Shown: positions 1 to 59,595 of the stretch, piece by piece | How positions within the stretch are numbered: the stretch's first letter is position 1 | Layout of the letters: every line of letters begins with the position of its first letter | Source of the DNA: an uncultured bacterium | Lineage (GTDB): Bacteria; Oederibacteriota; PGYV01; CAWJRG01 | Direction: 5' to 3' | NCBI GenBank assembly: GCA_963845185.1 | Contig: CAWJRG010000010.1 | Span: 640,001 to 704,000 of the forward strand | Length of the DNA: 64,000 bases | Program-made: the position numbers and the translations under genes | Notes under the pieces: generated by a model | What the model saw: only the letters and a program-made list of their open reading frames with translations | What the model was told of the DNA's origin: nothing | Database searches by the model: none

Positions 1-37
1 TTCTCGCCCCGCCAAGTATAAAAGTTATCTTACTCAT
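1..37 (-). CDS. cobU: N-terminus (partial, runs off window) of adenosylcobinamide kinase/guanylyltransferase
   Basis: ATG at 37 translates MSKITFILGGAR, matching the CobU/CobP GGARSGKS start; overlaps the upstream stop in a B12 operon. Confidence 0.7.
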   Translation of the reverse strand, partial: MSKITFILGGAR

Positions 38-629: not shown

Positions 630-630
630 T

Positions 631-1320: not shown

Positions 1321-1374
1321 CTACCCGTCCTCCCAAATTCAAAATTTCTCCTTCCACCCTGATGGCGGAAAATA

Positions 1375-3372: not shown

Positions 3373-3386
3373 GTTCCCTCCTGTTG

Positions 3387-23248: not shown

Positions 23249-26200
23249 TTATTTAAGTATCAATATTGTTGAAAAGCCTGCGCTGGATATGCCCTGGCCT
23301 TTCATTTCTACCTTGAGCCTGTAAGCGCCGGGTGCAAGCGTCTGGCCGCCTGAAGCTTTACCGCTCCATTGCACCGTGTGGTCCCCTGTGGAAACGTAAT
23401 AGACTCCTGTAAGCTCCTGCTGCCATATGAGCCTGCCGGACACTGTGTATACTTTCAAATATACTGTAGTGTCCGGGGATGGGACATAGACTCTCTGACC
23501 TAAGGCTGCGGCAGCCGCTCCTGTGGATGTAGTGTTCACAGTGTACTTTATATTCACACCTGTTGCCGCTGTCGCAGGGTTCGGGTAAGTCATTACATTG
23601 GAAACCACGGCTGTACTTTGAGTAGATGAAGGCTCCTGTCCCCAGACCAGCACTCCCGAAGAATATGCAGTTACCCTGGTCCATGCCTGCCAGCTCTGCG
23701 TATTTGAGTAGCTCCAGTCGTTTGACTGCACCATGGCGGACCAGTCTGATTTGTTGAACCTTGCCTGGATCTCTATCGTCTGTCCGGGCTGCAGCACCAG
23801 GTTTCCCGTAAATTTGTAACTTATGTAATCGGTCTGTCCTCCCAGAGTTGTCGGTACTACCGTGGTTTGCACATCCTGGGTAACCGAGGTTCCGGCCGGC
23901 AGTAATCCCGCCCAATCAACCCAGGCCTGTATTGCCTGGCCTGTGCAGTCGCAGTTAAACCAGTACCTCACCTCTATATTATTAAGGTTTATCGCAGAGG
24001 TACCACTGTTTACTATCTGGAACTGCGGGTGCGGGCTGTTTGAATTGTTGTTGGTGTCAGCGCTTCTTAGTTCAATGGTCAGATTCACAGTAGTTGGCAC
24101 TGTAGGTGATGGCGTTATCGGCGTATTCGTCGGAACAGGCGTTGTTGGTGTCGCTGACGGCGTTATTGGTGTATTCGTAGGTACAGGTGTCGTAGGTGTT
24201 GCTGACGGCGTTATTGGCGTGTTCGTTGGAACCGGTGTCGTCGGTGTCGCTGACGGCGTTATTGGCGTGCTTGTTGGAACCGGTGTCGTCGGTGTCGCTG
24301 ACGGCGTTATTGGCGTGTTTGTTGGAACCGGCGTCGTCGGCGTCGCTGACGGCGTTATTGGCGTGTTCGTCGGAACCGGCGTCGTTGGCGTCGCTGACGG
24401 TGTCACCGGTGTATTTGTCTTTGTGAATGTATTGGTACTTGTGAAAGTATTCGTCGCCGTATAAGTGTTCGTGAAAGTATTTGTCGGCGGCACCGGCGTA
24501 TTTGTCTTTGTAAAAGTATTGGTGCTTGTTAATGTATTCGTCGCCGTGTAAGTCAGTGTATTGGTACTCGTTAACGTATTCGTCGGCGTATAAGTAAACG
24601 TATTGGTGCTCGTTAACGTATTGGTTGGCGTCGCCGGCTGGGGTATTATCTGGATAGCGCATACCTGTGCATTGTCCGCGCTCGCGGGCCCGAACTGGAT
24701 CGTGATCTGCCCGTTGCTTGGCGATATATTGTTAAACACTTTATCGTCAGCTTTGTATTCCGCACCCGAATCAGCGAATATGTCGAAGTTGCTCAGGACC
24801 TGGGTGCCGTTTATCGACACGTTGAACACACGCGACCCGGCTGCGGTCCAGATATGTCTCGGCGAATTTCAGCGTTACCTGGTAGCTGCCCGCTGGCACG
24901 TTAAATGTGTAAGTAAACGGGTTGCCGTACCTTTCACTCTGGTAAAGTGTCGGGTCCGTGGTATTTGAAATACTGTTTGTTAAAGTTTTTGCCGTGCCGC
25001 TGCTGTAATTCTCATCCGCGGCCCACACATTGCCGCTGCCGTCCGTATACGACGAACCTCCGGCATCCACCCTCCATATTGACTGAATAACGGGCGTCGG
25101 TGTCGGCGAAGGAGTAACAGGTGTATTCGTAGGAGCGGGTGTAGTTGGAGTCGAAGTCGGCCCCACCGGTGTATTTGTCTTTGTGAAAGTATTGGTCGGT
25201 ATAGGCGTCGTAGGCTGCGGTGTCACTCCGCCTGATGTGCCTACAAATGACATCACGCTCTGCGCCGGCAGCGAATAGGTAAAGCTGTTCCCGGAAACTG
25301 ACACGGCAGACTGCGCAACGAGGTTATTGTTAGCGTCCGTTTGCCAGGGCGTGACCGACGTCGCGGAAAGCCCGTTAAGGCTGAACTGCTGGCTTGTGGC
25401 CGACGAATTCTGGTTTATGACGACTATAACGAACTTGCCTGAGTTCGGGTCCGTATATGCCGAGCAGCTCAGGCCCGATGTCGGCGCCTCTGTAGCGCCT
25501 ATGCGGACGAAGCCGGGCTTGACGAACTTGCTGTAGTTGCCAATGGTATAAAGCCTCTTTGTCGGGTTGCCGCTCGAGTCGCACAGCCCCTCATCGTCGG
25601 AGCCCGTTGGGACCAGCCACCAGTAACAAAATGCGTTGAAATTGTTGTCCACGATACATTTGTGAAGCAGAGCGGCGTAGTAGATACCGCTGTCTATATT
25701 ATTATCGCTGGTTTTCTCCGAGATCTCCGTCTCCCAGCTCTCGACCGTATGGCCGGCAGTAGTGGAATAACTGGACGGTATCGCGGTAGGGCCGCCGCCG
25801 TACAGGTGCATGCCGATGACTTTCACGTATTTCGCCGCGTTCGAGTCCGCCATAGTGGTGTTGGAACCGGTCAGGTTGTCCGCAAAGGATTCCGGCATCA
25901 TGATGATGTTGTTAAAACCGGCGGCTGCGAGGTCCGGGCCCAGGTAGCTGCCGATGAAGGTGTCAAATGCCGATGGCGACCAGAGGCAGGCATCATAGCT
26001 GGGGTCGTAGTCCGGTTCGTTCTGGACCGAGATCGCGTAAAGTGTAAAACCGTAGGTGTTTTTGCAGGCTGTAACAAAGCTTGTCAGGTAGCTGGCATAG
26101 TCGCCATAGTGCGAGGTGTTAAGCTGGTTGGAGTTGGATCCGGGATTGAAGTTGTCGTTGCCGGTGTTGTTGCCGCTTGTGCTGTTGTTGTTCTTCCATT

Positions 26201-26534
26201 TCGCCGGCGGGCTCCACGGGCTGGCAAAGACCCTGACGTTGGGGTTGATGGCCAGTGCCTGTGTCGCAAATGCGCATTGTGAGCCCCAGTTGCCGTTGCC
26301 GGAATCATCAATGCCGAGGCGAAGTATGGATAGCCCGGCATGGCCGTTGGTGGAATCGTCCGCCCAGAAAGTGTTGGCAAGCGAGGACGAGAATGTGTTG
26401 TCCCATTGGCTGCTTGCACCGAAACCTGAGATCGTTTGGTATTTTGTGGTTGAATCAATTGTAGCTGTTCCTGCAAAAACTTGTGAAACAAAAACTAAAA
26501 GTAAAGCCATTAAACCGATTAACTGTTTTTTCAT
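23249..26534 (-). CDS. Multidomain GH30 (xylanase-like) + malectin + Thr/Pro linker + CBM3 + sorting domain; frameshift near 24851
   Basis: QTISGFG, SPWSPPAKWK, SVQNEPD, WETE (GH30); LYQSERYG...FAETY/RVFNVSING (malectin, joined by deleting one base); IEVRYWF...DWS....NDWSY (CBM3); TYPNPA. Confidence 0.88.
24105..24415. repeat. 48-bp coding tandem repeat (PSATPTTPVPTNTPIT, ~6 copies)
   Basis: Visible in DNA and protein. Confidence 0.9.
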
Positions 26535-27900: not shown

Positions 27901-28179
27901 TCACCCGCAATCGCAGGAGACTTTTTTGCCCTTGCCCCTGAACTTTGAGGCAAGCACAGCTGACGCGCAGCCCGGGCCAGCGTCGACCTTTATCGCGCCG
28001 AACGCGCAGTTTGTCATGCATGCCCCACATTCAATGCATTTGTCTTTGGCGGTCACAATTGCCTTTTTCCCTTTCATCTGGAATATCCTGTGAGGGCACA
28101 CAATGACACACATCTGGCATCCTGTGCATTTTTTCTCGTTGTATTCAAGGGTGTTCAGGCCAAGGTAAGTCAGTTCCAT
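27901..28179 (-). CDS. hgcB: Mercury methylation 2[4Fe-4S] ferredoxin HgcB
   Basis: CTGCQMCVIVCPH, CIECGACMTNC, GPGCA; overlaps hgcA stop. Confidence 0.93.
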   Translation of the reverse strand: MELTYLGLNTLEYNEKKCTGCQMCVIVCPHRIFQMKGKKAIVTAKDKCIECGACMTNCAFGAIKVDAGPGCASAVLASKFRGKGKKVSCDCG

Positions 28180-29348
28180 TTTATTGCACCTTTTATTACG
28201 AAGTCTGCTATCTGCAGGCCTATACCGATTATTGCCGCAATTATCATCACAGGCACTGATACTGCGATTTCTTTGCGCACGCCTGTAAGCGATGTGAAAG
28301 TAGATGTGCCTGTGTAATTCATGAAAATAAAAGAAGTAAATGCGGTAGATAGCATCACAATGGATGCCTGCGTGAGATGCGTCATGCCAAGCGCGAGCAG
28401 CACAAACGCCAGCGAACCTATGAGTCCGGTAACTGCTCCTTTAACCGAAAACATTCTGCCCGGCAATACAGGCAGCAGCGCAGCAGGCAGTACAGTCGCG
28501 CATAGCACTGCGACAAACAGGGCCTCTATAAAATACGCTGCGTTGGAAAAGCCCGTGGCCAGGTTAAAACCATTTTTTGTGAAACTTGCGGCCAGTACTG
28601 CAACAACAGAAGTAGTAAGTATTATCTTCACAGCAGATACAAACTCTATACCTGTTATTTCCATCCTTTTCCGCAACCCGAAACCAACTGTCCTCTGTTT
28701 TTCATCTGCCTTCATCCCGTTTTTCAAAAACTCTTTTATGTCCCGCGCCTCAACAGGCCCGAATATGACTTTGAACCTTGCGCCTTTCCTTACAAGGTGC
28801 GCTGCTATCCCCGGCGCGCCGAGCTGCGGCACTATCACGTCCCTGTGTGCGACAACCCTGTCCAGCTTCACAAGCTTTATCCTTTTAATAAGTTCCTCTG
28901 TCCCAAAAGTGCCCTTGCCTGCAGCGCACCAGACATTCACTCCCTTTGAGTCCAGCACAAGTATCCACGCGTCAATGCCTGTGAGTTCTTTTCTCAGCGA
29001 GTCAAAAGACATCTTGTAATTTGCAGATACCAGCACAGGCGAGTTCCTGTCTGGCTTTCCCACCGCGTATAACCCCGGCCGCACGCCATGGTTCATCCTG
29101 TTTATCCCGAACCGAGCAAGCAGGTTTCCTATTATATCGGTTATTCCTAATTTTGTCGGCACAACAGGCGCGCTGCCTCCTGCTGTTTTTAATATATCCA
29201 GCACGCGGAATTTTTTAAATTTTGTTATTTCCTTTATCGGCCCGCCGCAGCAGCATTCCTCTTCTTCTTTATCTTCTTCAGCCGCACATCCGCATGAAGC
29301 CTGTTCTTTTTCCTCTTCGCAGCAGCAGCTTTGCTTTTGTTTTTTCAC
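28170..29348 (-). CDS. hgcA: Mercury methylation corrinoid protein HgcA
   Basis: Cap-helix motif GVNVWCAAGKGTFGT, ANYKMSFD, PQLGAPG, C-terminal TM helices, MNYTGTSTFTS.TGVRKE. Confidence 0.96.
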   Translation of the reverse strand: MKKQKQSCCCEEEKEQASCGCAAEEDKEEEECCCGGPIKEITKFKKFRVLDILKTAGGSAPVVPTKLGITDIIGNLLARFGINRMNHGVRPGLYAVGKPDRNSPVLVSANYKMSFDSLRKELTGIDAWILVLDSKGVNVWCAAGKGTFGTEELIKRIKLVKLDRVVAHRDVIVPQLGAPGIAAHLVRKGARFKVIFGPVEARDIKEFLKNGMKADEKQRTVGFGLRKRMEITGIEFVSAVKIILTTSVVAVLAASFTKNGFNLATGFSNAAYFIEALFVAVLCATVLPAALLPVLPGRMFSVKGAVTGLIGSLAFVLLALGMTHLTQASIVMLSTAFTSFIFMNYTGTSTFTSLTGVRKEIAVSVPVMIIAAIIGIGLQIADFVIKGAIKWN

Positions 29349-30250
29349 CTGCCTGCTCCTTTTCCCGCCTGTTTGCCGAATTCTATCGTGCTTTTTATGA
29401 AATCACCGGGCGTGCCGAAATCAAAGCGCCTGGCGTCTTTTATTTCCAGCGCGCAGTATCCCTGCCTCTGCCTTAAGAGCTCCTGCGCATAGGTTAGCTG
29501 TATTTCGTTGTTCTGCCTGATATTGGCTGCTATCATTTCCTCAAGCACATCATATATACCCGGCGTAAGCACATGCATCCCGAACCAGCCGAGGAATTCG
29601 CCCGGTCTCAGCCCGCTGACTTTCAGTTTCTTCCCGGCTGTTTCTGCGCCTGGTTTTTCTATGATAAGCGACACGTCTATTAAACACGGGTTGTTTTTCC
29701 TCCGCACGCCCGCAATCACCCCGTAGCCTTTTAAATCTTTTGTCCGGATGCGGTTGACCGCAGAGACAGCCCTGCCGCACTCTTCATACGCCCTCATCAG
29801 CCGGCTATGGCAGGACCTGGCGCCTGACCTGAACAAATGGTCGCCGAGGCAAAGCAGTACAGGCTCATTGCCCGCGAACTTCCTGCTCTGGAATACGGCG
29901 TGCCCGTATCCTTCCTGTTTTTTCTGCACTGCGAATGATATCCTGCTTAATGCCGCGCGCATTTTTTTTGCTTCACCGTATAATGCCTTATGCTTTTTCA
30001 GCCTTCCGATATAATCGGCGTCCGGGCCGTTAAAATAATCCTCGATAAGCTTTTCTTCACCGGGCCTCACAATGACGCAGATTTCTTTTATCCCTGCGCC
30101 GATCAGGTCCATCACCTGGTAATGTATCATTGCCCTTGCTATGCCGTCGGGCCCGACCACAGGGAAAAGCTCTTTTTTGCAAGCGTGGACCGCAGGAAAC
30201 AGGCGCGTGCCCAGGCCTGCAACAGGTATGACTGCTTTTTTTATCATCAT
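29345..30250 (-). CDS. Sugar-1-phosphate nucleotidyltransferase (GalU-like)
   Basis: KAVIPVAGLGTRL.P....KKELFP, QEGYGHAV, LGDH, EKP, FDFG. Confidence 0.85.
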   Translation of the reverse strand: MMIKKAVIPVAGLGTRLFPAVHACKKELFPVVGPDGIARAMIHYQVMDLIGAGIKEICVIVRPGEEKLIEDYFNGPDADYIGRLKKHKALYGEAKKMRAALSRISFAVQKKQEGYGHAVFQSRKFAGNEPVLLCLGDHLFRSGARSCHSRLMRAYEECGRAVSAVNRIRTKDLKGYGVIAGVRRKNNPCLIDVSLIIEKPGAETAGKKLKVSGLRPGEFLGWFGMHVLTPGIYDVLEEMIAANIRQNNEIQLTYAQELLRQRQGYCALEIKDARRFDFGTPGDFIKSTIEFGKQAGKGAGR

Positions 30251-31692
30251 ATTTCCCTTTTCCATCCTGCTTTACCTTTCCTGTATGCCAGCGCGCCGAA
30301 CTCTTCCGCGCCCGGCGAGGTTCCGGAAAAAACATCCGGTTTTAACCCGGTTTCTTTTTCGTATTCATCTGCTACGGCGCGTATTTCTTTTGCGATGGTT
30401 TTCCTGCTGCCGAATACCGCCACAGTACCGCCGGAGCCTCCGCCTGTTATTTTTGCTCCGTACAATCCGCCCGGCCTTACCCTTTTTTTTACGCAATCCA
30501 CCAGGTAGTCCGTCTCAGGCACCGACAGCCGGCAGTTTTTACCGTAGCTTTCATGGCACGCGAACATGTACGTACCGGCTTTTATAAAATCCTTTTCGTC
30601 CTTTGCTGTTTTCAGCGCCTGTATAAATCCCAGCACTCTCTGGTTTTCGTGTACCGGGTGCGCCGTCGGCCCGGCTACCCTGTAAGCCCTGTCATGCCTT
30701 ATTTCGGTTGCCGGGTCCTCATGCGTCCTGAATTTTTTCAAAAACCCGCTGCCGCTTATCGTTTCCGGCAGCAGGCCCCTGTATTTTTTTTCGAATTCCG
30801 CCGCGCCAAGCTCGGTCAGGTACTGTATTTCTTTTTCGCCTTTTGACGCGCGCGCAGCGTTGATTATGCGCTTGCCCATAAAAGCGCCTGTGCGCACGTC
30901 GCCGTATGCCCTGCCTGCGACTGAATGCCTGACCATTGAATTAATTCCTGCAAAAGCAGCGCCTCGGGGTATGCTTATCTCGCCTGCTATGCTGCCCGGC
31001 CTGCATAAAATATGGAGTAGTTTCCCGTGCCTGCCCGCGGCAACTGTTATCTGGTCCATTGCGCCGCACGGCGCGCCCACTACCATGTTTTCAGCGAGCT
31101 GCCCGAGCTCGGCCATGCGCAATGCCGGCATGTCCAGCTTCAGGTAATTCTGCAGGGCGTAAAGCGTGGATATTTCCACGGCAGCCGAGCTGCTTATGCC
31201 CGAGTTCATGGGCACCCCGCTTAAAAGGAAAATATTGAGGCCGTTATAAAGGCGCATGCTGTGTTCTTTTAGGAGGACAAAAATAGAACCTACTATATAA
31301 GCGGACCATGCCGCAAGAGGGTTTGACCGGCAGATGGACCTGATTTGCCCGTATGCCGCATATTCCCCGTTTGAGTTGAATAAATCCAGCGGTATTCCTG
31401 TTTCCGCAGCCAGGTTCTGCGCGCCCATCTGCAGTGTCCTTATCCTGATTGTCCGGTCTTTCCGCGGCTGTATTGCCATGGCTATGCCGCAGCCGAGCGT
31501 GCCTTCGCATACGTTGCTGCCCGAATAGTCGGCTATGCCGCCCATGATGTCAAGCCTAGCAGGCACCCTTGTGACAGTGATTCCGCTTTGGTTGAAAAAT
31601 CCGTCCAGCCCTGGTTGGCTGTTTTGTTTCTCATTCAAAAGCGATTCAAACCGCGCAATTTCCGGCAGCAGTTTATTGTCCAAATGGCTCAT
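30247..31692 (-). CDS. GHMP sugar kinase (galactokinase/L-arabinokinase-like)
   Basis: RLDIMGGIADYSGS, PMNSGISSSAAVE, GAPCGAMDQ, GAKITGGGSGG; ATG overlaps upstream stop. Confidence 0.88.
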   Translation of the reverse strand: MSHLDNKLLPEIARFESLLNEKQNSQPGLDGFFNQSGITVTRVPARLDIMGGIADYSGSNVCEGTLGCGIAMAIQPRKDRTIRIRTLQMGAQNLAAETGIPLDLFNSNGEYAAYGQIRSICRSNPLAAWSAYIVGSIFVLLKEHSMRLYNGLNIFLLSGVPMNSGISSSAAVEISTLYALQNYLKLDMPALRMAELGQLAENMVVGAPCGAMDQITVAAGRHGKLLHILCRPGSIAGEISIPRGAAFAGINSMVRHSVAGRAYGDVRTGAFMGKRIINAARASKGEKEIQYLTELGAAEFEKKYRGLLPETISGSGFLKKFRTHEDPATEIRHDRAYRVAGPTAHPVHENQRVLGFIQALKTAKDEKDFIKAGTYMFACHESYGKNCRLSVPETDYLVDCVKKRVRPGGLYGAKITGGGSGGTVAVFGSRKTIAKEIRAVADEYEKETGLKPDVFSGTSPGAEEFGALAYRKGKAGWKREI

Positions 31693-32078
31693 TTTATAAA
31701 CACTCCCTGTAAAATAAGCAGTCCAGCTCCGGTAAAAATAAACGGGCAAAGCTTGTACGGCAGGAAATTTATCTGAAAGCCCGTGAAAAGCGACAGTATA
31801 GACATGGCGATGAGCATTAAAAATATAAGCACATACACTGCCTTTGCCACGTCAATGCCTTTGTCCTCGACAATTGCCGTAGTAATAGCCAATATGCCCA
31901 AAAATATCAGCGCCATGCCCTCGGTCACCCATTCCATTGTTATTACTCTGGCGTTGTCAAGGGTGATGTTTCCGAATCCTTTTACAACCGATACTGTTGG
32001 AAACAGGTGTGCAATTCCCCATACAGCAGTTAAAACTCCCCCGGTAATCAGCAATATTTTTCGTATCATAATTAACAT
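31689..32078 (-). CDS. Four-TM hypothetical membrane protein
   Basis: Hydrophobic helices, WGIAHLFPT, EW..EG, KLCP; operon packing. Confidence 0.75.
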   Translation of the reverse strand: MLIMIRKILLITGGVLTAVWGIAHLFPTVSVVKGFGNITLDNARVITMEWVTEGMALIFLGILAITTAIVEDKGIDVAKAVYVLIFLMLIAMSILSLFTGFQINFLPYKLCPFIFTGAGLLILQGVFIK

Positions 32079-32088
32079 TTCCTCCTAT

Positions 32089-32517
32089 TTATATTGCTAG
32101 AAATCCTTTTACCCATTCTACCACTTTTTTCTTAATTTCATCCCTGATTTTATTTGTGGCTTCAAGCTTCTCTTCCGGAGTTCCCTTTAGTGCCGATGGG
32201 TCCGGGAATGACCAGTGCAGCCTTTGCGTCACGCCCGGGAATATGGGGCAGCGCTCGGCTGCTTCCCTGTCGCATACGGTTATGACATAGTCAAATAATC
32301 TTCCCTGCTTGTAAAAATCAAAAACTGACTTGGTTTTGTTTTTTGAAATATCTATCCCGTCCTGTTGCATGCTTTTGACTGCAACAGGGTTCAAAACTCC
32401 GGGCTCTATGCCAGCGCTTTCCGCAATAAACCTGTCGCCAGCAATCTTGTTAAGGTACGCTTCAGCAATCTGACTCCTTGCGCTGTTGTTGTTGCAAACG
32501 AACAATACTTTTATCAT
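32089..32517 (-). CDS. arsC: Thioredoxin-dependent arsenate reductase (LMW-PTP fold)
   Basis: [12 protein letters not shown].....ERCP, HWSFPDP; GGAGG RBS. Confidence 0.9.
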
Positions 32518-32639
32518 ATTCTTAACCTCCTGAAGAGATATTCCGGAAGTATTGCACATGCTGGTACTTCAAAAGTAAATCGGTGAAATCTTTTTATCCA
32601 TTCTTACATTTTGAACAATTTTTCTGATAAATTTATCCT

Positions 32640-33593
32640 TCACTTACCCTGTTCCGCAGCTTTGTCAATAGGATATCCGGCTTTCTCCCACTGCGACAGC
32701 GCGTTGTTAAAAATATGGATTTTTTTATATCCGGCTTTGAACAATTTTTCTGCGGCTTTTGAGGCGTTTCCGTTAAAAAACCCGCGGCAATAAACTACAA
32801 TTGGTTTTTGGCTTAAAATTGCGCTATAACTTTGCAGCATATCCCCGGTTTTATCGGCAGGTATTGAATAAGCCCACTTTATTCGCATTTTATTGAATTT
32901 ATCCGCATCATCTGCATCTATAAAATTGGCAAGGTCGTTATCGTAAAGAAACTTCGCTTCGGTCAGTGTCAATTTTTTTACAGCACCGGCTGATGCGGCT
33001 TCATCGAAAAGATATTTATATTCAGCAGGCGGCTCATATTTTTGTACCGGCATATTTGCCTGCGTCCATTCCGGCCATCCGCCAAAAAATATGCAAATTT
33101 TCCTGTAGCCCGCGTCAAACAGGGCGGCTGCAACTTTATCGGACAGATGGCATCCGGTTCCGTGGCAGTAAGTTACGAGTACTTTATCCTGCAATTTGTC
33201 TTTTAACAACGGTATTTTTGTGGCTGCTTCGCTTGCTCCCATGGATTCCGAGCCTGGTATATGAGAAATATTGTACTCGCCGATACCCCTCGCGTCTATA
33301 AACAGCGCTTTGCCGCTTTCATACAAGACCTTTGCTTCTTTCAGATGGATTTTAGGTATTGTCTCTTTGGTCTTTGATTCCGCAAAAAGATATTTATATT
33401 TAGCAGGTATTTTATAATTTATTTTAGGCTTGAGCGCGGAAGCTGCCGTCTGTTGGTTAGAGTCCTGCTGAACCTTGATAACCGGCGGTGAAGGCTGATT
33501 ATTATCCGCTTTGATTACTTCCGAATTGACAAGTAAAGACACAGTTAAAAAAGCAGAGGTAACAAATACTTTAAAATATACTTTTCCAATCAT
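32640..33593 (-). CDS. Exported tandem rhodanese-domain protein
   Basis: Signal peptide; FIDAR...EY..SHIPG, YCHGTGCHLS, GGWPEW; second domain YCRG...W..AGYP. Confidence 0.85.
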   Translation of the reverse strand: MIGKVYFKVFVTSAFLTVSLLVNSEVIKADNNQPSPPVIKVQQDSNQQTAASALKPKINYKIPAKYKYLFAESKTKETIPKIHLKEAKVLYESGKALFIDARGIGEYNISHIPGSESMGASEAATKIPLLKDKLQDKVLVTYCHGTGCHLSDKVAAALFDAGYRKICIFFGGWPEWTQANMPVQKYEPPAEYKYLFDEAASAGAVKKLTLTEAKFLYDNDLANFIDADDADKFNKMRIKWAYSIPADKTGDMLQSYSAILSQKPIVVYCRGFFNGNASKAAEKLFKAGYKKIHIFNNALSQWEKAGYPIDKAAEQGK

Positions 33594-33619
33594 GTTTTGC
33601 TCCTTTAATTTTTCTTTAT

Positions 33620-34280
33620 TTAATTGCCTATCTTTCCATTTATAATCCTTATTACCCTATCGGCTGATTCTGATATTTTCGGGTCGTGGGATACAACTAC
33701 AACGGTTTTACCCTGGGTCTTTATGTCTTTCAGCATTGATATTACCTGTATGGCATTATCCGGGTCAAGATTGCCGGTAGGCTCGTCTGCAAGTATTATC
33801 TCGGGGTCTTTTATCAGTGCCCTTGCAGAGCGCCGCCCTTTGCTGTTCCCCCACGCTCAATTCTCCGGGTAAATGTCCTGCCCTGTGTGGGATATTCATT
33901 TTTTCAATTACAGCCGTTATCCGGCTCTTATCGATACTGACGGGTTTTGACAAACCAAGCGCCAGTTCTATGTTTTCAAAAATCGTAAGATAAGGTATTA
34001 AATTAAATGTCTGGAATAAAAATCCTATATATTTCGCTCTCCATGCGGCCCTTTTTTTTCTGTTCCATTCGTATATAGATGAGTTGTTCCATTTGACCTT
34101 GCCTTCCTCCGGGGCGCTCATTCCTCCCAGGGCAAGAAGCAACGTACTCTTACCGCTTCCGCTCGGTCCGGTTATTGCCAAAAATTCGCCATTTTTTATT
34201 TCAAACGAGGCGTTGTCAACGGCTGTTACCTTTCCATGCTTGTGTTGAAAAATTTTTGTTATATTAATTGCGCTAAGCAT
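33620..34280 (-). CDS. ABC transporter ATP-binding subunit (LolD/MacB type), frameshift near 33827
   Basis: GPSGSGKST, LSVGEQQR; deleting one base gives ALARALIKDPEIILADEPTGNLD...VSHD to stop at 33620. Confidence 0.88.
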
Positions 34281-34282
34281 AA

Positions 34283-35488
34283 TTAATCCTCTCTTATTAT
34301 AGAATATGGGTCGACCCTTATTGCGTTCAATACCGGGACAAAAGCAGCGGCAGCTGACACTATTAAAGACAGCACCGCCACTATTAAACCCAATAAGGGA
34401 ATTGGTCTTGCTTCTATTCCGGCTATTGCCTGTCCCAGCAGCATTGCGATAACCGAACCAAGAATAAAACCGGTCACCGCGCCTGAAAATCCAATTATCA
34501 GGGCTTTGGATATAAACAGCTTTGCGACGAACCGGTCGTCCGCGCCCATCGAAGTCAGGATGCCGATTTCTTTTCTGCGCTCATAAACGTCGTCAAACAT
34601 GAAATTTGCGATGCTTGCAGCGCCCATTAAAAGTACTATTATTATCAGGATATTTGAGATGCCATTCATTATCTTATTTGTATTTATCTGCGTAGCTACT
34701 ATCTGGCTTATGGTCACGACTTTCGCGTCTGGAAGAGCCTTATTAATTTTGGCTATAAGCCCGGTCGATATTGCCGAACAGCATCCTTCTATTTCTATGG
34801 CGCTTAACACCTGTTTTTTATTAAAGAGGTGCTGCATGGTTTTTAAATGTATAAATATCCTGGCGTCATCTGTGGTACCTGTCTGCGGAAGCACCTGCAT
34901 TACCGTAAATGTTTCGCCTTTAATTTTAAACCGGCTGTTTTCTTTAATCTTCAACCTGGAAGCGACGTCATAGCCTACAAGAGCCTGAAATTTGCCAAGG
35001 TCGCTTATGACCCTGTTCTTTTTATTGTCCACGTTGCCGGGAACCACGAACCCGGGCGCACAGCCTTTGGGCTTTGTAAATAATCCGACCGCTCCGGCCC
35101 AGACTGATTTTGATTTAAATTCATTGAGCGGCAGTATTCCCGTCGCAATTACCCTCATGCCTTCCACTTCTGTTTTGACATTCAGTTTTGGCGAGATATT
35201 ATCAAGCCCCTCCATTCCTGAATTTGTAAGCTTTGATATATACACTTCCGGAATTTCATCCTCCTGCAAATCCGCCTGGTAATAATCCTGCACGGTGGCG
35301 GATTTTGGAAGTATAAGAATATTGGCGCCAAGCGTGTCAAGCTCGGAGGATATTTTATTTTCAGAATAAAACGATATGGTTTTTATCGCAACAATGACCG
35401 CTACTCCCAGCGCAACCGCCAGTAATCCCGAAAAAAGCCTGTTTTTTTTCAAAAATATTTCTTTTAAAAGCATTCCTGATATTTTCAT
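34283..35488 (-). CDS. ABC transporter permease (FtsX/MacB type)
   Basis: One TM, large periplasmic loop (LGANI), ERRKEIGIL..MGA, three C-terminal TMs; unusual EGCC. Confidence 0.88.
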   Translation of the reverse strand: MKISGMLLKEIFLKKNRLFSGLLAVALGVAVIVAIKTISFYSENKISSELDTLGANILILPKSATVQDYYQADLQEDEIPEVYISKLTNSGMEGLDNISPKLNVKTEVEGMRVIATGILPLNEFKSKSVWAGAVGLFTKPKGCAPGFVVPGNVDNKKNRVISDLGKFQALVGYDVASRLKIKENSRFKIKGETFTVMQVLPQTGTTDDARIFIHLKTMQHLFNKKQVLSAIEIEGCCSAISTGLIAKINKALPDAKVVTISQIVATQINTNKIMNGISNILIIIVLLMGAASIANFMFDDVYERRKEIGILTSMGADDRFVAKLFISKALIIGFSGAVTGFILGSVIAMLLGQAIAGIEARPIPLLGLIVAVLSLIVSAAAAFVPVLNAIRVDPYSIIRED

Positions 35489-35504
35489 TGATTATCTCAC
35501 TTTC

Positions 35505-36248
35505 CTAGTGATGGCAGCAGCTGCCGCCGCTGCAGGCTTTAATGCCTGTTAATAATTGATCTTTGTTTGTTTTACCCTTATACACGCCGCCTATTCTTCC
35601 CGGAGGCACGATCATAACGATGGTTGCTTCCGTGATTGGCCCTGTTATTGTAGACTTTGTGATGAATTCCTTGCTGGCCGCATCGTCAGGGTCGATGTAA
35701 ATAGTCTCCACAGCGCCCATGAGGTTCTTTATCTTCGCAAAATCCTCAGCCGCTTTTGTCGATTCTTTGTTGTATTTTGTGCCGCTGTTTTGGAGCATCA
35801 CAAGCGCAAGCTTTCCTTCCTCCATGATTTTTAAAATATTCAAAACAGTCTGGCCCGGGAAACTTTTTTCAAGCTGTTCATCCGATACCTGCTGCGGAAA
35901 TCCGCCTGTTACCACGCCGTTTGGCGCAAAAACAAGCAACAAAGGCATAGGTGTGCCCGTTACCCTGTATTTTGCTATTATTTCCGCTTCTTTTGTGTCG
36001 CTTATCTTTGCCCTGTAAATCAAAGGTTTGTCCATACCGTCTTTTTTAAAAGCTTTTATTTTTTCATTCATTACTTTGTACAAGCTGTCTTTTTTTTCAT
36101 AAAAAATTACAAATACCCATTGATTTTTTGCCTGAGCTTCGCTTATTGCCTCCTGCGCGCTTTGCGGCGCCGCGGCAATATTACGTGATAAAAACATTAG
36201 GGTAAAAAAAACTGATAACTGCAATAAAATTGAATATGTTCTCTTCAT
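35505..36248 (-). CDS. Exported protein with probable degenerate thioredoxin-like folds and Cys/His tail
   Basis: AAGGAG RBS, signal peptide, KYRV...PMPLLLVFAPNG, C-terminal CSGGSCCHH. Confidence 0.7.
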   Translation of the reverse strand: MKRTYSILLQLSVFFTLMFLSRNIAAAPQSAQEAISEAQAKNQWVFVIFYEKKDSLYKVMNEKIKAFKKDGMDKPLIYRAKISDTKEAEIIAKYRVTGTPMPLLLVFAPNGVVTGGFPQQVSDEQLEKSFPGQTVLNILKIMEEGKLALVMLQNSGTKYNKESTKAAEDFAKIKNLMGAVETIYIDPDDAASKEFITKSTITGPITEATIVMIVPPGRIGGVYKGKTNKDQLLTGIKACSGGSCCHH

Positions 36249-36264
36249 TTTTTCTCCTTTGGTT

Positions 36265-36471
36265 TTATGGTTTTTTATAATAATAATTAACCAGGGGAAT
36301 GATAATGTTGTCGTTATCAACGCAGGTACAATTAGGTCCGCATAAAACAAATAATGGCTTTACTTTTGTTTCCAGTTTTGGCGTCTTTTCTGCGCAACCT
36401 TGATAAAATAATGTTAATAGCAGTATTAAAATCCACTTTATTAAACGTATGTAAATCCCTATGTTTTTCAT
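36265..36471 (-). CDS. Small Cys-containing putative lipoprotein (68 aa)
   Basis: AAGGAG RBS, hydrophobic stretch + QGC, CGPNCTC; fills operon gap. Confidence 0.6.
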   Translation of the reverse strand: MKNIGIYIRLIKWILILLLTLFYQGCAEKTPKLETKVKPLFVLCGPNCTCVDNDNIIIPLVNYYYKKP

Positions 36472-36494
36472 TTTTCTCCTTCTGGTATTTTAAT

Positions 36495-37841
36495 TTAAAC
36501 TTTTTTCATCCAGTCCTGGCCTGCCATCTGCACAGGGTCCCACGGCGTGCTCAAAGGCGGCGTATAGCTCAGGTCAAGGCTGCTTAAGGCGCTTATCGTC
36601 ATTGAATTATAAATGGCCGCAGCCGCTATGTCTATCCTTTTTGAAATCTCTGCTGTCCTGCTCCCTATCATCTGGAACCCCAGGAGCCTGCCTGTTTTCC
36701 TGTCGCCTGTCATCCTTATTGAAATTTTTGTCGCGCTAGGATAATAGACCTTGTGGTCCCACGCCTCAAACTCGGACGTAAAAGGTTCAAACCCTGCGCC
36801 TGTCGCCTCCCTGTCGTTCAACCCTGTCCTTGCCATGACCATGTCGAACAATTTCAATGACTGGGTGCCAAGTGTGCCTTCGAATTTAACATTATTGCCG
36901 AGCGCATTTTCTCCCGCTATCCTGCCCTGCTTGTGCGATATGGTGCCCAGCGGCAGGTAAACATATTTCTGAGTTATTCTGTTCCATGTTTCCACGCAGT
37001 CCCCTGCCGCGAAAATATCCGGAATATTTGTTTCCATTTTCCTGTTTACGATAATTGCGTTTTTTTGGTCTGTTTTGACCCCGGCTTCCATAGCGAGCTT
37101 TGTGTTCGGCACTGCGCCTGTCGCTATTAATACAAGGTCAGTGGAGGCGGAAAAGCCATTACTTCCCGTGACATCCAGTTTTTTGTTGTTTTGTTTTATT
37201 GCCGATACCGATACGCCTGTAAAAACCTTTGCGCCTTTTTCTTCGAGCTTTGCCATGACAAGGTTTCCAAGCTGGACGTCCATGGTCGGCAGCACCGTGT
37301 TTAAGAACTCGACTACGGTTATTCCAATGCCGCGGTTGAGCAAAGCCTCGGACATTTCAATGCCTATATATCCTGCGCCTATGATAACCGCGTTTTGGGG
37401 CTTATTCTTTTCCATGTACTCCTTGAAAGCGACTGATTCCCCTATCCAGCGAATATAAAATACGCCGGGCAGGTCCCTGCCCTCTATTGGAGGCACAGCT
37501 GATGTTGCGCCTGTGCCTATGACAAGGCGGTCGTATTTTATTTCCATGGGCTTGCCGTCTTTTGGCGCGGCATATATTTTCTTTTCTTCCGGTAAAATTT
37601 TTGTGACAACCGTGTCCAGGAGCAGCTTTATACCCGTGCCTTCTATCTCGGCCCGCGTTCTGTGCGCGAGAGTCCTCCAGTCCTTAATCTCATCTCCTAT
37701 ATAAAAAGGTATGCCGCATATGCTGAAATTTGGGAACTCATCTGATGTAATTATCAAGGGCTCTATTGTCTTGTCCAGCTCGCGTATCCTGAGCGCAGCG
37801 CTTATGCCCGCGTCGCTACCACCTATAATTACAATTTTCAT
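36495..37841 (-). CDS. FAD-dependent pyridine nucleotide-disulfide oxidoreductase (CoA-disulfide reductase/NADH oxidase family)
   Basis: IIGGSDAG, FSICGIPF redox Cys, IGAGYIG.E, AAGDC, LDLSYTPP. Confidence 0.9.
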   Translation of the reverse strand: MKIVIIGGSDAGISAALRIRELDKTIEPLIITSDEFPNFSICGIPFYIGDEIKDWRTLAHRTRAEIEGTGIKLLLDTVVTKILPEEKKIYAAPKDGKPMEIKYDRLVIGTGATSAVPPIEGRDLPGVFYIRWIGESVAFKEYMEKNKPQNAVIIGAGYIGIEMSEALLNRGIGITVVEFLNTVLPTMDVQLGNLVMAKLEEKGAKVFTGVSVSAIKQNNKKLDVTGSNGFSASTDLVLIATGAVPNTKLAMEAGVKTDQKNAIIVNRKMETNIPDIFAAGDCVETWNRITQKYVYLPLGTISHKQGRIAGENALGNNVKFEGTLGTQSLKLFDMVMARTGLNDREATGAGFEPFTSEFEAWDHKVYYPSATKISIRMTGDRKTGRLLGFQMIGSRTAEISKRIDIAAAAIYNSMTISALSSLDLSYTPPLSTPWDPVQMAGQDWMKKV

Positions 37842-37874
37842 GCAATCCTCCAATAATTGTATTTTTCGGATATA

Positions 37875-38735
37875 TCACCCGTATACTCCGAACCTGATGT
37901 TGTTCTTTCCGTGATTTTTTGCTTCATACATAAGGCTATCCGCTGCTTTTATCATCTCGTCTATGCTTTTAGGCGGTTTCGTCAAAGTAAGTACCCCGGC
38001 GCTGAAAGTTAACGGGTAGCCGGATTTCTTCATTTCCTCGCGGATAATTTCCCCAAGATGTTTTAAAAACGGTTGTACCGAATCCGCGCCCATTTCAGGC
38101 AGGAGAATCACGAATTCATCCCCGCCAAGCCTTGCCAAAGCGTCGGTTCTCCTTATATTGGACCTTACGATGTTTGCCACTGTAATCACGAGCCTGTCGC
38201 CTTCCAGGTGCCCCATCGTGTCGTTTACTTTCTTGAAATCGTCTATGTCCATGTAAATAATTGTCAGGGGTTTGTTGTACCTTTGTATCCTGTTTATTTC
38301 TATAGCCGCGTAATTATAAAATGCCCTTGCGTTTGATGCCTTTGTCAGGAAGTCTTCCATTGCCGATTCTTTCTGCCTTTTGATTTCCTTCTTAAATTCA
38401 ACAAGCATAAATGTAAAAATACCGCAGAATATAAACCCGGTTACCGCGCTCCATACTGGGATAAAATAGCCTCCCTTTTAGCTGATTTCCAGTTTGTCCG
38501 CAAAAAATAGCGTTACGGCAATTAAAACCGAAATAGCCAGCCCTGTTTTTTTACCCGTGAACCACGCCGTGATCCCTACGGGAATGAGGAAAAATATTAT
38601 AAAAGGCAGGTCAGTGCCTGTCTTCACGTCGAACCAGCGGTCCACAAACCCCAGAAATACTGCTAAAACCGCCGAAAATGTGAATATAACCGCTTTGACG
38701 GTTATGGAATCTGTTTTTATGCCGCTAAAATTCAT
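37875..38735 (-). pseudogene. Membrane-anchored diguanylate cyclase with in-frame TAA at 38478-38480
   Basis: ORFs 38478..38735 and 37875..38408 are in the same frame and the 23 codons between them are open; DIDDFKKVND..GH, RLGGDEF. Confidence 0.8.
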
Positions 38736-38758
38736 GGCAGCTCCTTTAATTATATTTT

Positions 38759-39799
38759 TTACAGGAAACTTTTTTTCATTGCCAGCGCCGCGTTTACAAG
38801 AAGTATGAGCGCAGGCACTTCCACGAGCGGGCCTATGACTGTAGCAAAAGCCTGTCCCGAACTTATGCCAAAAAGCGCAACAGACACTGCTATTGCCAGC
38901 TCAAAATCATTGCTCGCTGCCGTGAACGCTATGGTCGCGCACTTTTCATAAGGCGCACCTGCCTTTTTTGCCAGGAAAAAAGCCGCGAACCACATGATGC
39001 CGAAATAAAAGACAAGCGGTATGGCTACCCTGAGGACGTCCATGGGAAGCGAAATAATTGCCCCGCCCTTGAAAGTAAACATTACAATTATTGTAAAAAG
39101 TAGCGCAAAAAGTGTTATGGGCGAAACTGCTTTTACAAACCCATTGTCGTATTTTTCCGCGCCAATTATCGGCCTCAGTGTTATACGAGTAATAAAACCC
39201 GCGGCAAAAGGAATGCCGAGGTATATGAGCACGCTTTTTGCCGCTTCCCACATGGAAATATTTACATTGATTCCTTTGACAAGCCCTGTCAGGTTAAGGA
39301 AAAAACTGACAAAGAACCATATATATACGGAATAAAAAAGCACCTGGAATATTGCGTTAAAACCGACAAGGCCAACAGCCAGTTCGCGGTCACCGCCCGC
39401 AAGCTCGTTCCATACTATAACCATGGCTATACACCGTGCCAGCCCCACCATAATAAGCCCTATCATAAGCTCAGGCCTATCATGCAGGAAAAGCACTGCA
39501 AGCCCGGTCATAAGCACAGGGCCTATTACCCAGTTAAGGACAAGGGAAAGCGAAAGGAGTTTTTTATTGCTGAAAACAAGCCCCATTTCCCCGTAGCGCA
39601 CCCTCGTAAACGGCGGGTACATCATGAGCATGAGCCCGATGGCAATAGGGATGGAGGTCGTGCCTATATTGAATTTGCTTATGAACCCGGTTGCCTGCGG
39701 CCAGAAATATCCTATTGCCACGCCCGCGCCTATTGCCATGAAAATCCATAAGGTCAAAAATCTGTCAACAAATGATAATTTTTTGATTGTTGTTTCCAT
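38759..39799 (-). CDS. acr3: ACR3-family arsenite efflux transporter
   Basis: [39 protein letters not shown]. Confidence 0.95.
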
Positions 39800-40162
39800 C
39801 TATTTATCCTGGCTGCGGAATTTCATGCAGCATTCTGCTTTCTTCTTAATAACAATTTTTGCTTTCTTTAAATCTTTGCCCAGTGTCTTATCCGCCCGTG
39901 TCAATGCCCTGGCGAATTTTGATATTGCCCTACCTGGATCGTCTTTAACTGCTGAATAGTGTATCCAGAGACCGTCTTTCCTGTCTTTCACAAGCCCTGA
40001 ATTCTTCAGCAGCCCGAGTGCCCTGGAAGCATGTGTCTGGGATATTTTAAGAGTATCCATGATGTGGCAAACGCAAAGCTCGCCTTTTTCCGAAAGCAGC
40101 CTGTAGATGCGCAGCCTTGTTTCGTCCCCCAGCGCCCTGAATGCCTTGATTGCCTGTTCCAT
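39800..40162 (-). CDS. arsR: ArsR/SmtB repressor
   Basis: FRALGDETRLRI, ELCVCHI, GLV......W..Y, C-terminal CC. Confidence 0.92.
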   Translation of the reverse strand: MEQAIKAFRALGDETRLRIYRLLSEKGELCVCHIMDTLKISQTHASRALGLLKNSGLVKDRKDGLWIHYSAVKDDPGRAISKFARALTRADKTLGKDLKKAKIVIKKKAECCMKFRSQDK

Positions 40163-40177
40163 ATTAAATACTCCTTT

Positions 40178-40227
40178 TAAAGTATATTTGATTTTACAAA
40201 TATACTTTATTAAGAGTTATTTGTCAA
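40178..40227 (-). promoter_or_regulatory. ars promoter with putative ArsR operator
   Basis: TTGACA 40227..40222, 17 bp spacer, TATATT; 13-6-13 inverted repeat TAAAGTATATTTG-N6-CAAATATACTTTA at 40178-40209 over the -10. Confidence 0.8.
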
Positions 40228-46300: not shown

Positions 46301-47026
46301 TTATTCTGTGATCCCCAGAACCGACATTATGCCTTCCTTGAGTATTTTGTTGACATGGGAAAATTTTTTACCTGCGTCAACTACCTGGAACCCGTATTCT
46401 TTTGCCATTGAGTCGAATATTGAGATAACTTTTTTCTGGTAATGGATGAAGCTGTCGTAAAAATCCTCACCGAGCCTCATGTCCATGCCCGATTCCCAGA
46501 AATCCATCATTTTCTCCGTGCTTTTCCAGTACTCGTCTCCCAGGTTGTCGCTGTTTAATATGCGCGGGATGAGCGCCTTTACCCTTACGCGCATATAAAA
46601 AACCGCGTCAGGTACAAGCGCAAAACCGTATGATTTCAACAGCCACTCCCTGTCAATGCCCCTGGTGAGCGAGCGGGCAAAAGCAGTGTATATGTAACGG
46701 TCTGCCAGCACTATGTAACCCGCTTTCAGCGCAGGTATTATCTCGTGCTCGAGCCTGTCCGCAAAATCAGCCAGGTAAAGCAAACTGAAAGTATGTACAT
46801 TTAAATTCTGGCGTTCTTTTGCGTCCTGGACTGCCTTGCCGATAAAAGGCGAGCGTATCCAGCCGGTCACAGATACCGGATAACCCTTTACTTCGAGCCA
46901 CTCCTTAATGTCGCTTATCTGGGTGGAACGTCCAACACCGTCAGTGCCCTCTATCACAATCAGCTTGCCTGTTATGTCGCTCAAGTCAATTTTTGGCAGC
47001 GTTATCCCTGAAAAAGTCTTGATCAT
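46301..47026 (-). CDS. Thymidylate-kinase-like protein with variant P-loop
   Basis: EGTDGVGRST, ADRYIYTAFAR. Confidence 0.85.
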   Translation of the reverse strand: MIKTFSGITLPKIDLSDITGKLIVIEGTDGVGRSTQISDIKEWLEVKGYPVSVTGWIRSPFIGKAVQDAKERQNLNVHTFSLLYLADFADRLEHEIIPALKAGYIVLADRYIYTAFARSLTRGIDREWLLKSYGFALVPDAVFYMRVRVKALIPRILNSDNLGDEYWKSTEKMMDFWESGMDMRLGEDFYDSFIHYQKKVISIFDSMAKEYGFQVVDAGKKFSHVNKILKEGIMSVLGITE

Positions 47027-47709
47027 ATTATGGGCTCCGGCACATAATTTTCGAGCACTGATTTTGTCATTTCGCGCACCAGATGCTGCTGGCTGTTTAT
47101 GCTCTGCGTCGCGTCAATGACATTCAGGCCGTACTCAGCGCATATCCTGTCATATTCCTCCAGTATTTTTCCCTGGAATATTTTGAAACTTTCCTCCGGG
47201 TCGTCGGAAAAGCCTATATCCATGCCTGCCTCGTAGTATTTCAGGCTCGGCCTTCCTATCATTATTCTTTTTATGGAAACATCCGTGTTAACCTTGAAAT
47301 ATAATGCGAGATTTGGTTTTATAGCAAAACCGTAAAGATCCTTGACCCACTCGCGGTCAACTCCCCTCACTGCGTCTCTGGCAAATGCAGTATATATGTA
47401 GCGGTCGGCAAGGACTATCATTCCTGCTTTTAACGGCGGCAAAATCAAATGGTTCAGCCTGTCTGCAAAATCAACAGCGTGCAAAATGCTGAATGTAGTC
47501 GGAGTAAGAAGATTTTTTTTCTTTCCTCTCCTTATAGTTTCGTTGACAAGGTCGGAAGAGTTCCACTCCGTGAAAAAAACCTGGTGCCCGAGGCTTTTGA
47601 GCCATTCCTGGAGCAGCCTGAGCTGCGTGGATTTTCCCGAGCCGTCTATGCCTTCAACTATTATTAGTTTTCCCGGATAAGGGTGCTGGTCAAGATATTT
47701 TCTTGGCAT
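47023..47709 (-). CDS. Thymidylate-kinase-like protein
   Basis: EGIDGSGKST, ADRYIYTAFAR, YYEAGMD. Confidence 0.88.
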   Translation of the reverse strand: MPRKYLDQHPYPGKLIIVEGIDGSGKSTQLRLLQEWLKSLGHQVFFTEWNSSDLVNETIRRGKKKNLLTPTTFSILHAVDFADRLNHLILPPLKAGMIVLADRYIYTAFARDAVRGVDREWVKDLYGFAIKPNLALYFKVNTDVSIKRIMIGRPSLKYYEAGMDIGFSDDPEESFKIFQGKILEEYDRICAEYGLNVIDATQSINSQQHLVREMTKSVLENYVPEPII

Positions 47710-58560: not shown

Positions 58561-59004
58561 TTAAAAGCCCTTGTCTGCCGTAATTACAGATGCCCATTCC
58601 ACCATTTTTACTTTTATGTTGTCCCTTACCTTCCTTGTCCTCTCAAGTTTTTCCGCTTCAGTGCCTTTAAACTTCGCCGGCTCAGGGAATTTCCAGTGCT
58701 TTCTTTTTGCCGCACCGATATAAACCGGCCACTTCCCGGTAGAAGCCCCATCGCCAACCGTGATTACATGGCTGAACAGATTGCCTTTTTTGTGAAAATC
58801 AGAGACTCTTCTGGTCGGATTTTTCGATATATCAATGCCTATTTCAGCCATTGCTTCGACCGCATACGGGTTTAATTTGCCCGGCTTAAGCCCTGCGCTT
58901 TGAGCGTCAAACTTGTATCCTGCGTATTTGTTCATGAAAGCCGCGGCCATCTGGCTTCTTGCGTTGTTGCGCTCGCATACGAAAAGGACCCTTGTCTTTT
59001 CCAT
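58561..59004 (-). CDS. ArsC/LMW-PTP paralog lacking both resolving cysteines
   Basis: CERNNARSQ intact, TVGDGASTGKWP instead of TVC...KCP, FPEP instead of FPDP. Confidence 0.85.
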   Translation of the reverse strand: MEKTRVLFVCERNNARSQMAAAFMNKYAGYKFDAQSAGLKPGKLNPYAVEAMAEIGIDISKNPTRRVSDFHKKGNLFSHVITVGDGASTGKWPVYIGAAKRKHWKFPEPAKFKGTEAEKLERTRKVRDNIKVKMVEWASVITADKGF

Positions 59005-59066
59005 AATCAAAACCTCCTTTGCTGTGCATACAGTGTTTTAAACTTCCCAATGTTTAAATTGACCTG

Positions 59067-59525: not shown

Positions 59526-59595
59526 AATCAAATCTCCCTTTAAATTTTTGTTTCCTGTAAATATTCAAACCAATGAAACATTTATTTTCAATGAA

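Follow-up and report, generated by a model that had tools for sequence, protein, structure and literature searches.

An expanded, probably ArsR-controlled arsenic operon that ends in the mercury methylation genes hgcAB in an uncultured Oederibacteriota bacterium

Why do the mercury methylation genes hgcAB stand at the end of a long arsenic operon, and do the genes in between say anything about HgcAB? What HgcAB does natively and how its genes are controlled are open questions; here, hgcA is found to be co-inherited with the arsenite exporter gene acr3 across an order. The locus lies in a stretch of 64,000 nucleotides (the window, whose coordinates are used throughout) from an uncultured bacterium (GTDB lineage Bacteria; Oederibacteriota; PGYV01; CAWJRG01; GenBank assembly GCA_963845185.1, contig CAWJRG010000010.1, positions 640,001 to 704,000 of the forward strand). 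A sequence-only reading of the window had proposed a 15-gene operon headed by arsR, with arsenic-inducible mercury methylation embedded in a broader metal(loid)/thiol pathway and possibly a pointer to what HgcAB does natively. With fair confidence, we propose that ArsR represses one long transcript from arsR to hgcB and that As(III) releases it, such that arsenic defence and HgcAB would be induced together.

Layout and control of the operon

Reading of the genes bore out the order as first described. Between 40162 and 27901, the minus strand carries arsR, acr3, a GGDEF gene, a CoA-disulfide reductase (CoADR)-like gene, a 68-aa open reading frame (ORF), a thioredoxin-fold gene, an ATP-binding cassette (ABC) permease gene, an ABC ATPase gene, a rhodanese gene, arsC, a membrane protein gene, a kinase gene, a nucleotidyltransferase gene, hgcA and hgcB. 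All 15 were located, but the GGDEF and ATPase genes are broken and the 68-aa ORF may not be real. The common strand is itself uninformative, because the window has 27 ATG-started ORFs of at least 270 aa and every one of them is on this strand. With the best starts, the successive gaps are 0, 23, 33, 23, 16, 16, 2, 26, 122, 19, -4, -4, -4 and -10 bp; as had been noted, only the 122-bp gap before arsC exceeds 33 bp, and the last four junctions are overlaps. The absence of an internal terminator was also confirmed, with no terminator-like match in any gap of the run and none after hgcB. The gene that follows hgcB, lacI, is served by a strong promoter of its own.

Promoter scores come from a matrix built on 124 divergent intergenic regions of this genome. 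The sigma70-type promoter of arsR (40199..40227, minus strand; -35 TTGACA, 17-bp spacer, -10 TATATT) scores 15.1 bits, higher than 81% of divergent intergenic regions, and no other intergenic promoter in the operon is strong. The 122-bp gap (32518..32639), which had been named as a site where hgcAB might be decoupled, scores just 2.3 bits and contains no promoter- or terminator-like site. Over the -10 element lies a perfect 13-6-13 inverted repeat (40178..40209; arms 40178-40190 and 40197-40209), a likely ArsR operator, which is unique in the 3.5-Mb genome (the next best site has 4 mismatches). A palindrome upstream of arsR, over or beside the -10, was also seen in 7/11 relative loci (L035, L036, L038, L039, L040, L045 and L046); in the remaining four, arsR is within a gene run or its start is uncertain. 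The earlier claim of a single clear promoter with this operator stands between the genes. Within them, four intragenic promoter-like sites reach at least 10 bits (36634, 35340, 34219 and 33768; 2.0 expected), and a second intragenic count gave 8 against 5.8 expected.

The regulator itself (39800..40162, minus strand; 120 aa) is an ArsR/SmtB repressor (NF033788, 85.9 bits; cut-off 55) with Cys30-x-Cys32 in the alpha3 site and a C-terminal Cys111-Cys112 pair. The third cysteine of R773 ArsR is absent and C111-C112 is extra; in R773 ArsR, the two-cysteine pair that corresponds to C30/C32 is described as sufficient (10.1101/2022.10.17.512643). C30-x-C32 is predicted to bind As(III). The genome has two ArsR-family genes, this one plus one other. 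An inverted repeat that overlaps the arsR promoter, an exporter gene and an arsenate reductase gene, as expected of an ArsR-regulated ars operon, are all found in the run.

The arsenic and mercury genes were compared with family models and motifs. Acr3 (38759..39799, minus strand; TIGR00832, 415 bits, cut-off 282.8) is the only copy in the genome, making this the cell's only acr3 operon; arsM, arsP and arsA were not found in the genome with the queries used. The thioredoxin-type arsenate reductase ArsC (32089..32517, minus strand) has C8-x5-R14, C82 and C90, that is, all three catalytic cysteines, with a TIGR02691 score of 119 against a cut-off of 174. HgcA (28170..29348, minus strand) matches NF040863 with 388.8 bits (cut-off 275; model positions 3-322), and carries two cysteine triplets at its N-terminus and the cap helix NVWCAAGK at residue 138, which fits the family motif N(V/I)WCA(A/G)GK. 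HgcB, a 2x[4Fe-4S] ferredoxin (27901..28179, minus strand; NF040864, 102 bits, cut-off 99), follows directly with a 10-bp overlap. It has both CX2CX2CX3C motifs and ends in C-D-C-G, probably a spaced variant of the vicinal cysteine pair; close relatives end in CC or CNC. From family membership, this HgcAB pair is predicted to methylate Hg(II).

In the proposed mechanism, ArsR bound to the palindrome over the -10 would block transcription, and As(III) binding to the ArsR cysteines, as presumed from the family, would release it. A single transcript would then span arsR to hgcB, as the anatomy of the run suggests; ArsC would reduce arsenate, Acr3 would export arsenite, and HgcAB would methylate Hg(II) with a corrinoid. 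As HgcAB would be induced with the rest of the operon, methylation capacity would therefore rise with arsenic. For the corrinoid, genes for the uptake and salvage of B12 (btuF-like, btuB-like, cobC, cobU, cobT and cobS), about 24 kb from the operon at and just past the left end of the window (window 30-4259 and L310:12721-15630), are a plausible source. No cobalamin riboswitch was found at Rfam gathering thresholds, at which the window has no Rfam match of any kind.

Inheritance of the acr3-hgcA link and points against coupling

Among 99 genomes of the phylum, hgcA was found above cut-off in 32, and in 12 of the 24 genomes of the order (the window's genome included in both counts). Considering the 11 same-order relatives with hgcA, eight carry hgcA and acr3 in one run (G078, G080, G088, G089, G090, G092, G095 and G098) and nine have arsR upstream; acr3 and hgcA overlap in three of these genomes (G088, G089 and G090). 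The hgcA locus of G096 is cut by contig ends. FastTree trees agree with a common descent of the two genes in the order, as the window HgcA falls in a clade of 8 rows and its Acr3 in a clade of 9 rows, each with same-order genomes only and a local support of 99. The association also extends further: in a survey of 80 hgcA loci across prokaryotes, of the kind that the sequence-only reading had called for, 30 had an arsR match and 14 a strong acr3 match (many flanks are short, and three of the loci group with same-order sequences and are not independent). Because 8/11 relatives keep the acr3-hgcA run, 9/11 keep arsR, and the HgcA and Acr3 clades are confined to the order, the simplest history is a compact ancestral operon, arsR-acr3-(arsC)-hgcA-hgcB, of which the window would hold an expanded copy.

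Variation among these loci was also recorded. One same-order genome (G090; C84 and C85, L037 and L038) has two arsR-acr3-hgcA copies; hgcB follows hgcA in L037 and is missing after hgcA in L038, as it is in L035 (G088). In another order, genes for a crcB-like fluoride channel and a DUF190 protein (L045:10202-11000 and L046:11090-11902; named from translations only) lie just upstream of arsR-acr3-arsC-arsP-hgcAB.

Several observations weigh against joint control. First, the link is not obligate: in G091, arsR-hgcAB is separate from the acr3 operon, in G077 hgcA is unlinked and of another clade, and six genomes of the order carry acr3 but lack hgcA. Second, hgcA starts about 10.8 kb from the arsR promoter in a genome that encodes Rho, and the in-frame TAA of the GGDEF gene (38480-38478) and the frameshift of the ATPase gene (near 33826-33801) could, if real, be polar and cut read-through. 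Third, if the promoter-like site at 33768 is active, the genes from rhodanese to hgcB would be transcribed independently of ArsR. Fourth, ArsR2 of Pseudodesulfovibrio mercurii ND132 also responds to S-adenosylhomocysteine (10.1101/2022.10.17.512643).

Alternatively, hgcAB could be uncoupled, with polarity at the nonsense codon in gene 3 and the frameshift in gene 8, or an internal promoter, making the distal block (from rhodanese or the kinase to hgcB) a separate low-level unit. Promoter-like sites do lie upstream of that block (33768, 10.7 bits; 31960, 8.1 bits), and the kinase/transferase pair in it is foreign by composition and would gain nothing from arsenite control. Nevertheless, the internal sites are not clearly above chance in either count, and the two strongest coincide with the protein motifs IDIAAAAIYN and GNLD. 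In addition, arsC itself is in the distal block, whose last four junctions overlap. The breaks may also be assembly errors: a stop was seen in 2 of the 25 genes to which relatives' proteins were matched, and a nearby GH30-malectin-CBM3 gene (window 23249-26534) is likewise split by a frameshift (near 24800), which together hint at assembly errors or local decay. Overall, we regard uncoupling as rather unlikely. With a unique operator, the only acr3 of the genome and a compact acr3-hgcA run in 8/11 relatives, we retain the reading that hgcAB is ArsR-controlled and probably arsenite-inducible.

Inserted genes and surroundings

The genes that set the window apart from its relatives are absent from the compact same-order operons, and none is conserved with hgcA in the order; of the 99 phylum genomes, one was found to have the CoADR-like gene and two the permease, and the kinase and the membrane protein were found in four each. 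The lineage would have inserted them as two blocks, accessories between acr3 and arsC, and the membrane protein and sugar pair between arsC and hgcA, with the broken GGDEF gene and the 68-aa ORF coming along with the first block.

The first block begins with a membrane-anchored GGDEF gene (37875..38735, minus strand), 49% identical over 271 aa to an intact relative when its stop is read as X. The CoADR/NADH oxidase-like flavoprotein (36495..37841, minus strand) scores 368 bits with TIGR03385, below the cut-off of 579; Cys42 is a candidate for the single redox cysteine that CoA-disulfide reductases have in an SFxxC-like motif. No other genome of the phylum has one at E 1e-90 (99 genomes). Plasmids gave 70 matches, and in each of the 5 records examined the homologue (48-55% identity) was part of an ars operon; across 251 Bacillota genomes there were 2 matches, one with arsR nearby and one without. 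From these neighbourhoods we consider the flavoprotein a putative ars-operon accessory, independent of the presence of hgcA. The 68-aa ORF (36265..36471, minus strand; G+C 0.30, good ribosome-binding site), previously called a small Cys protein, has no homologue in any locus compared and is perhaps no real gene. The double-rhodanese protein (32640..33593, minus strand) has a hydrophobic N-terminus and a CHGTGC loop; as homologues in G080, G077 and G083 either belong to ars clusters or adjoin them, whether hgcA is present or not, it would be arsenic-operon cargo, an ars-cluster neighbour in this order.

Between them lies a fixed three-gene module of a thioredoxin-fold protein, a permease and an ATPase. 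The first gene encodes an exported tandem thioredoxin-fold protein (35505..36248, minus strand) with no CxxC and a Cys-rich tail, C-x5-CC (model pLDDT (predicted local distance difference test) 91; both halves Z ~11 to thioredoxins). The second is a MacB/LolCDE-type (type VII) ABC permease (34283..35488, minus strand; PF02687, PF12704; predicted structure with the MacB/LolCDE fold, Foldseek E 1e-19 to 1e-12), whose extracytoplasmic Cys143, Cys236 and Cys237 are invariant in the alignment of 77 of the 120 listed homologues. The third is a LolD/MacB-type ABC ATPase (33620..34280, minus strand), frameshifted as described above. The thioredoxin-fold gene precedes the permease in 71/80 metagenome loci and in 25/26 Planctomycetota loci, and tandem duplicates of it before the permease are common (L086, L205, L240, L248, L251, L259, L263, L270, L272, L275, L277 and L279).

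At least 1,328 permease homologues were found; there was no match on plasmids. The 80 metagenome loci are the best matches to the window permease, near-copies included, and 21 of them have at least 3 kb on both flanks: arsR is present in 19, an ars effector in 19, arsM in 9, arsA in 9 and hgcA in 1. One cluster with the module also holds an ArsM-ArsD fusion (L168:15062-16291). In a quick permease tree, the window falls in a group of 26 rows with a support of 87; ars genes accompany 24 of these rows but only 3/23 of those outside the group. Among 20 loci mostly from outside the group, seven have RND (resistance-nodulation-division) pumps, P-type ATPases, or a CDF (cation diffusion facilitator) or ArsP-type permease, in a scan that covered 57/118 neighbouring ORFs. 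These neighbourhoods and the tree point to a permease family linked to metal(loid)s, with the window's branch linked to arsenic. The module cysteines most likely bind trivalent arsenic species in the periplasm and move them. Judging from its type VII fold and its cysteines, the permease would capture such a species on these residues in an ATP-driven step and pass it to the exported Cys-tailed carrier.

Another alternative makes all of this one pathway, in which HgcAB would natively methylate arsenic or thioarsenic species instead of ArsM and the ABC module would export methylarsenite or methylmercury. Across the 99 phylum genomes, hgcA (32) and arsM (18) co-occur in just 1 (Fisher p 0.005), and two same-order genomes without hgcA (G082 and G083) have arsM in the ars cluster. 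This exclusion is driven by one family, however, with p 0.13 without f22 and 0.24 within the order. Similarly, an ND132 hgcAB knockout is more sensitive to arsenate, but ND132 produced no mono- or dimethylarsenicals according to the accessible text of the same report (10.1101/2022.10.17.512643). The module does lie beside hgcAB in 3/80 hgcA loci, in G001, in L202 and in the window, in three separate HgcA clades counting the window. Against this, it adjoins hgcA in just 1/21 metagenome and 0/26 Planctomycetota permease loci and in 0/11 same-order hgcA loci, its ATPase is frameshifted in this assembly, and its distant homologues are near RND pumps and P-type ATPases, not methyltransferases. We therefore consider a single pathway improbable. 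The same holds for a related form that we regard as a long shot, namely that in this order HgcAB is kept as a working arsenic-defence part in the slot that ArsM takes in sister genomes, and that the module is an undescribed periplasmic machine for clearing methylated As(III), and methylmercury where hgcAB is present; if true, this would bear on the native role of HgcAB and on the missing export route of methylmercury. A general role of the module as an hgc-specific exporter was rejected, as it follows ars genes with or without hgcA. It is best regarded as putative arsenic-operon cargo and not as an hgc partner.

In the second block, the small membrane protein (31689..32069, minus strand) belongs to no family in Pfam, NCBIfam or Atlas. 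A homologue (42%) lies directly after hgcB in a Bacillota locus (L057:11204-11833), which at 1/80 loci is too few to interpret. Next come a GHMP sugar-1-kinase (30247..31692, minus strand; galactokinase/L-arabinokinase-like) and a GalU-like sugar-1-phosphate nucleotidyltransferase (29345..30250, minus strand), in the 99th and 98th percentiles of G+C among the long ORFs of the genome. The kinase is below every galactokinase cut-off; its nearest structure is 9ULX AbGHMP (E 2e-94), and homologues at 58-63% identity are annotated as galactokinase or L-arabinokinase. A search of the order's other 23 genomes (E 1e-30) gave no kinase homologue, and the three other phylum genomes with the kinase all lack hgcA.

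Since both outer junctions of the pair, with hgcA and with the gene upstream, are 4-bp overlaps, it could be imagined to work together with HgcAB or with the ars genes, perhaps by supplying a nucleotide sugar for an arsenosugar. Yet the pair was found in 0/80 hgcA loci and 0/106 permease loci, and no arsM was found in the genome. Among 17 genome loci with distant kinase homologues (35-44%), the kinase is next to galT in 13 and next to a GalU-like gene in one; the 1.5-kb flanks gave no ars or hgc match. The host is a diderm that may resemble Candidatus Goldbacteria, and the window is rich in glycoside hydrolase and carbohydrate-binding module genes. We consider such a partnership hardly credible and rejected it; the pair is best read as a putative horizontally acquired cassette for sugar-1-phosphate/UDP-sugar salvage, a passenger of the operon. 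It serves as a caution that genes coupled to hgcA can be recent passengers.

The suggestion that HgcAB is embedded in a wider metal(loid)/thiol pathway found no support in these comparisons, as the inserts follow ars operons or sugar-salvage genes and none is conserved with hgcA in the order. On the question of what HgcAB does natively, the locus contributes co-inheritance with arsenic genes at the level of the lineage, but no new enzyme partner. The most valuable by-product is the Cys-rich ABC module, given its many permease homologues and strong tie to ars operons.

The surroundings are also of note. Directly upstream of the operon, a phosphate-regulon-like cluster (window 40933-63119; mostly named from translations) contains phoB/phoR, a porin-like gene, pstS, a SixA-like gene, two dTMP-kinase-like genes, ppx, pstCAB and phoU, and forms a phosphate-arsenic island with it. 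The dTMP-kinase-like genes stand in tandem (46301-47709) between the sixA-like gene and ppx and are possibly polyphosphate-related. Within the cluster are two tandem ArsC paralogues (59067-59531 and 58561-59010) that share 65% and 55% identity with ArsC of the operon; the second lacks the two resolving cysteines. Pho boxes were not detected, as the best sites reached at most 9 of 14 positions of an E. coli consensus.

Comparison with known systems

The closest regulatory precedent is ND132, in which arsenic raises hgcA expression and hgcAB is under ArsR control (Gionfriddo et al., 10.1101/2022.10.17.512643). As there, an ArsR-family gene lies upstream of hgcAB in the window. The ND132 hgc unit is described as having no other ars gene, whereas in the window hgcAB ends an acr3-arsC operon, 13 genes after ArsR. 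The sites also differ, as far as descriptions can be compared, with four cysteines in ND132 ArsR2 (C47, C49, C86 and C88) and an alpha3 CVC plus a C-terminal CC in the window ArsR. More widely, arsR was reported upstream of hgc in 14/31 confirmed methylators (PMC10349881). As hgcAB is behind an ArsR operator in the only acr3 operon, methylmercury production is therefore predicted to follow arsenic in these polysaccharide degraders, and the clean operator/repressor pair offers a simple system in which to test this.

That hgcAB lies near ars genes in other methylators, as the sequence-only reading stated, is published. In metagenome-assembled genomes (MAGs), hgcAB is flanked by acr3, arsC, arsM and arsR (McDaniel et al., PMC7438021; Peterson et al., PMC11984097), and acr3 or arsC occurs beside arsR-led hgcA, with lower hgcA/gyrB ratios where arsR is present (Peterson et al., PMC11984097). 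Neighbouring acr3, arsC and arsM genes are also described in PMC10349881. The core association is common to these loci and the window. The ars genes of the MAG loci are in the immediate flank or a few ORFs away, compared with about 9.4 kb between acr3 and hgcA in the window, and it is for the window's lineage that order-wide co-inheritance is found.

The accessories have parallels of their own. The TnAtcArs element carries orf7, an ORF with an NADH oxidoreductase domain, inside its ars operon (review PMC1142338), and the window likewise has a pyridine nucleotide-disulfide oxidoreductase as an ars-operon accessory. A gene after arsA on an At. caldus plasmid, which from its position and annotation we infer to be orf7, encodes a protein 48% identical to the window CoADR-like protein.

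The ABC permease is predicted to share the fold of MacB, LolCDE and HrtBA (type VII), with a separate LolD-like ATPase. Unlike MacAB-TolC, the operon has neither a MacA adaptor nor TolC, and the gene upstream is a thioredoxin-fold gene. Compared with all three type VII systems, the module has three invariant extracytoplasmic cysteines and a Cys-tailed tandem-thioredoxin partner upstream in nearly all loci. We found no description of it in the literature searched, which left out figures, supplements and most subscription journals. One paper notes that methylators have no known methylmercury transporter (PMC10083202). An ABC transporter with CC/CU motifs has been proposed to traffic organometal(loid)s in anaerobes (SAO; Haft and Gwadz, 10.1101/2022.07.06.499078), and the N-terminal cysteine triplets of the window HgcA resemble the CC/CU extension of HgcA in that report. 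SAO, however, combines a MetI-like importer, SaoP, with a substrate-binding protein and a MerB-like lyase, while the window permease is MacB-type and linked to ArsR. With no Sao family match in NCBIfam either, membership of the operon in SAO was rejected.

Overall, the core of the operon, that is, ArsR control of hgcAB and its acr3 and arsC neighbours, is already known. What is new is the order-wide co-inheritance of ars and hgc genes, the long expanded form of the operon and the sorting of its cargo.

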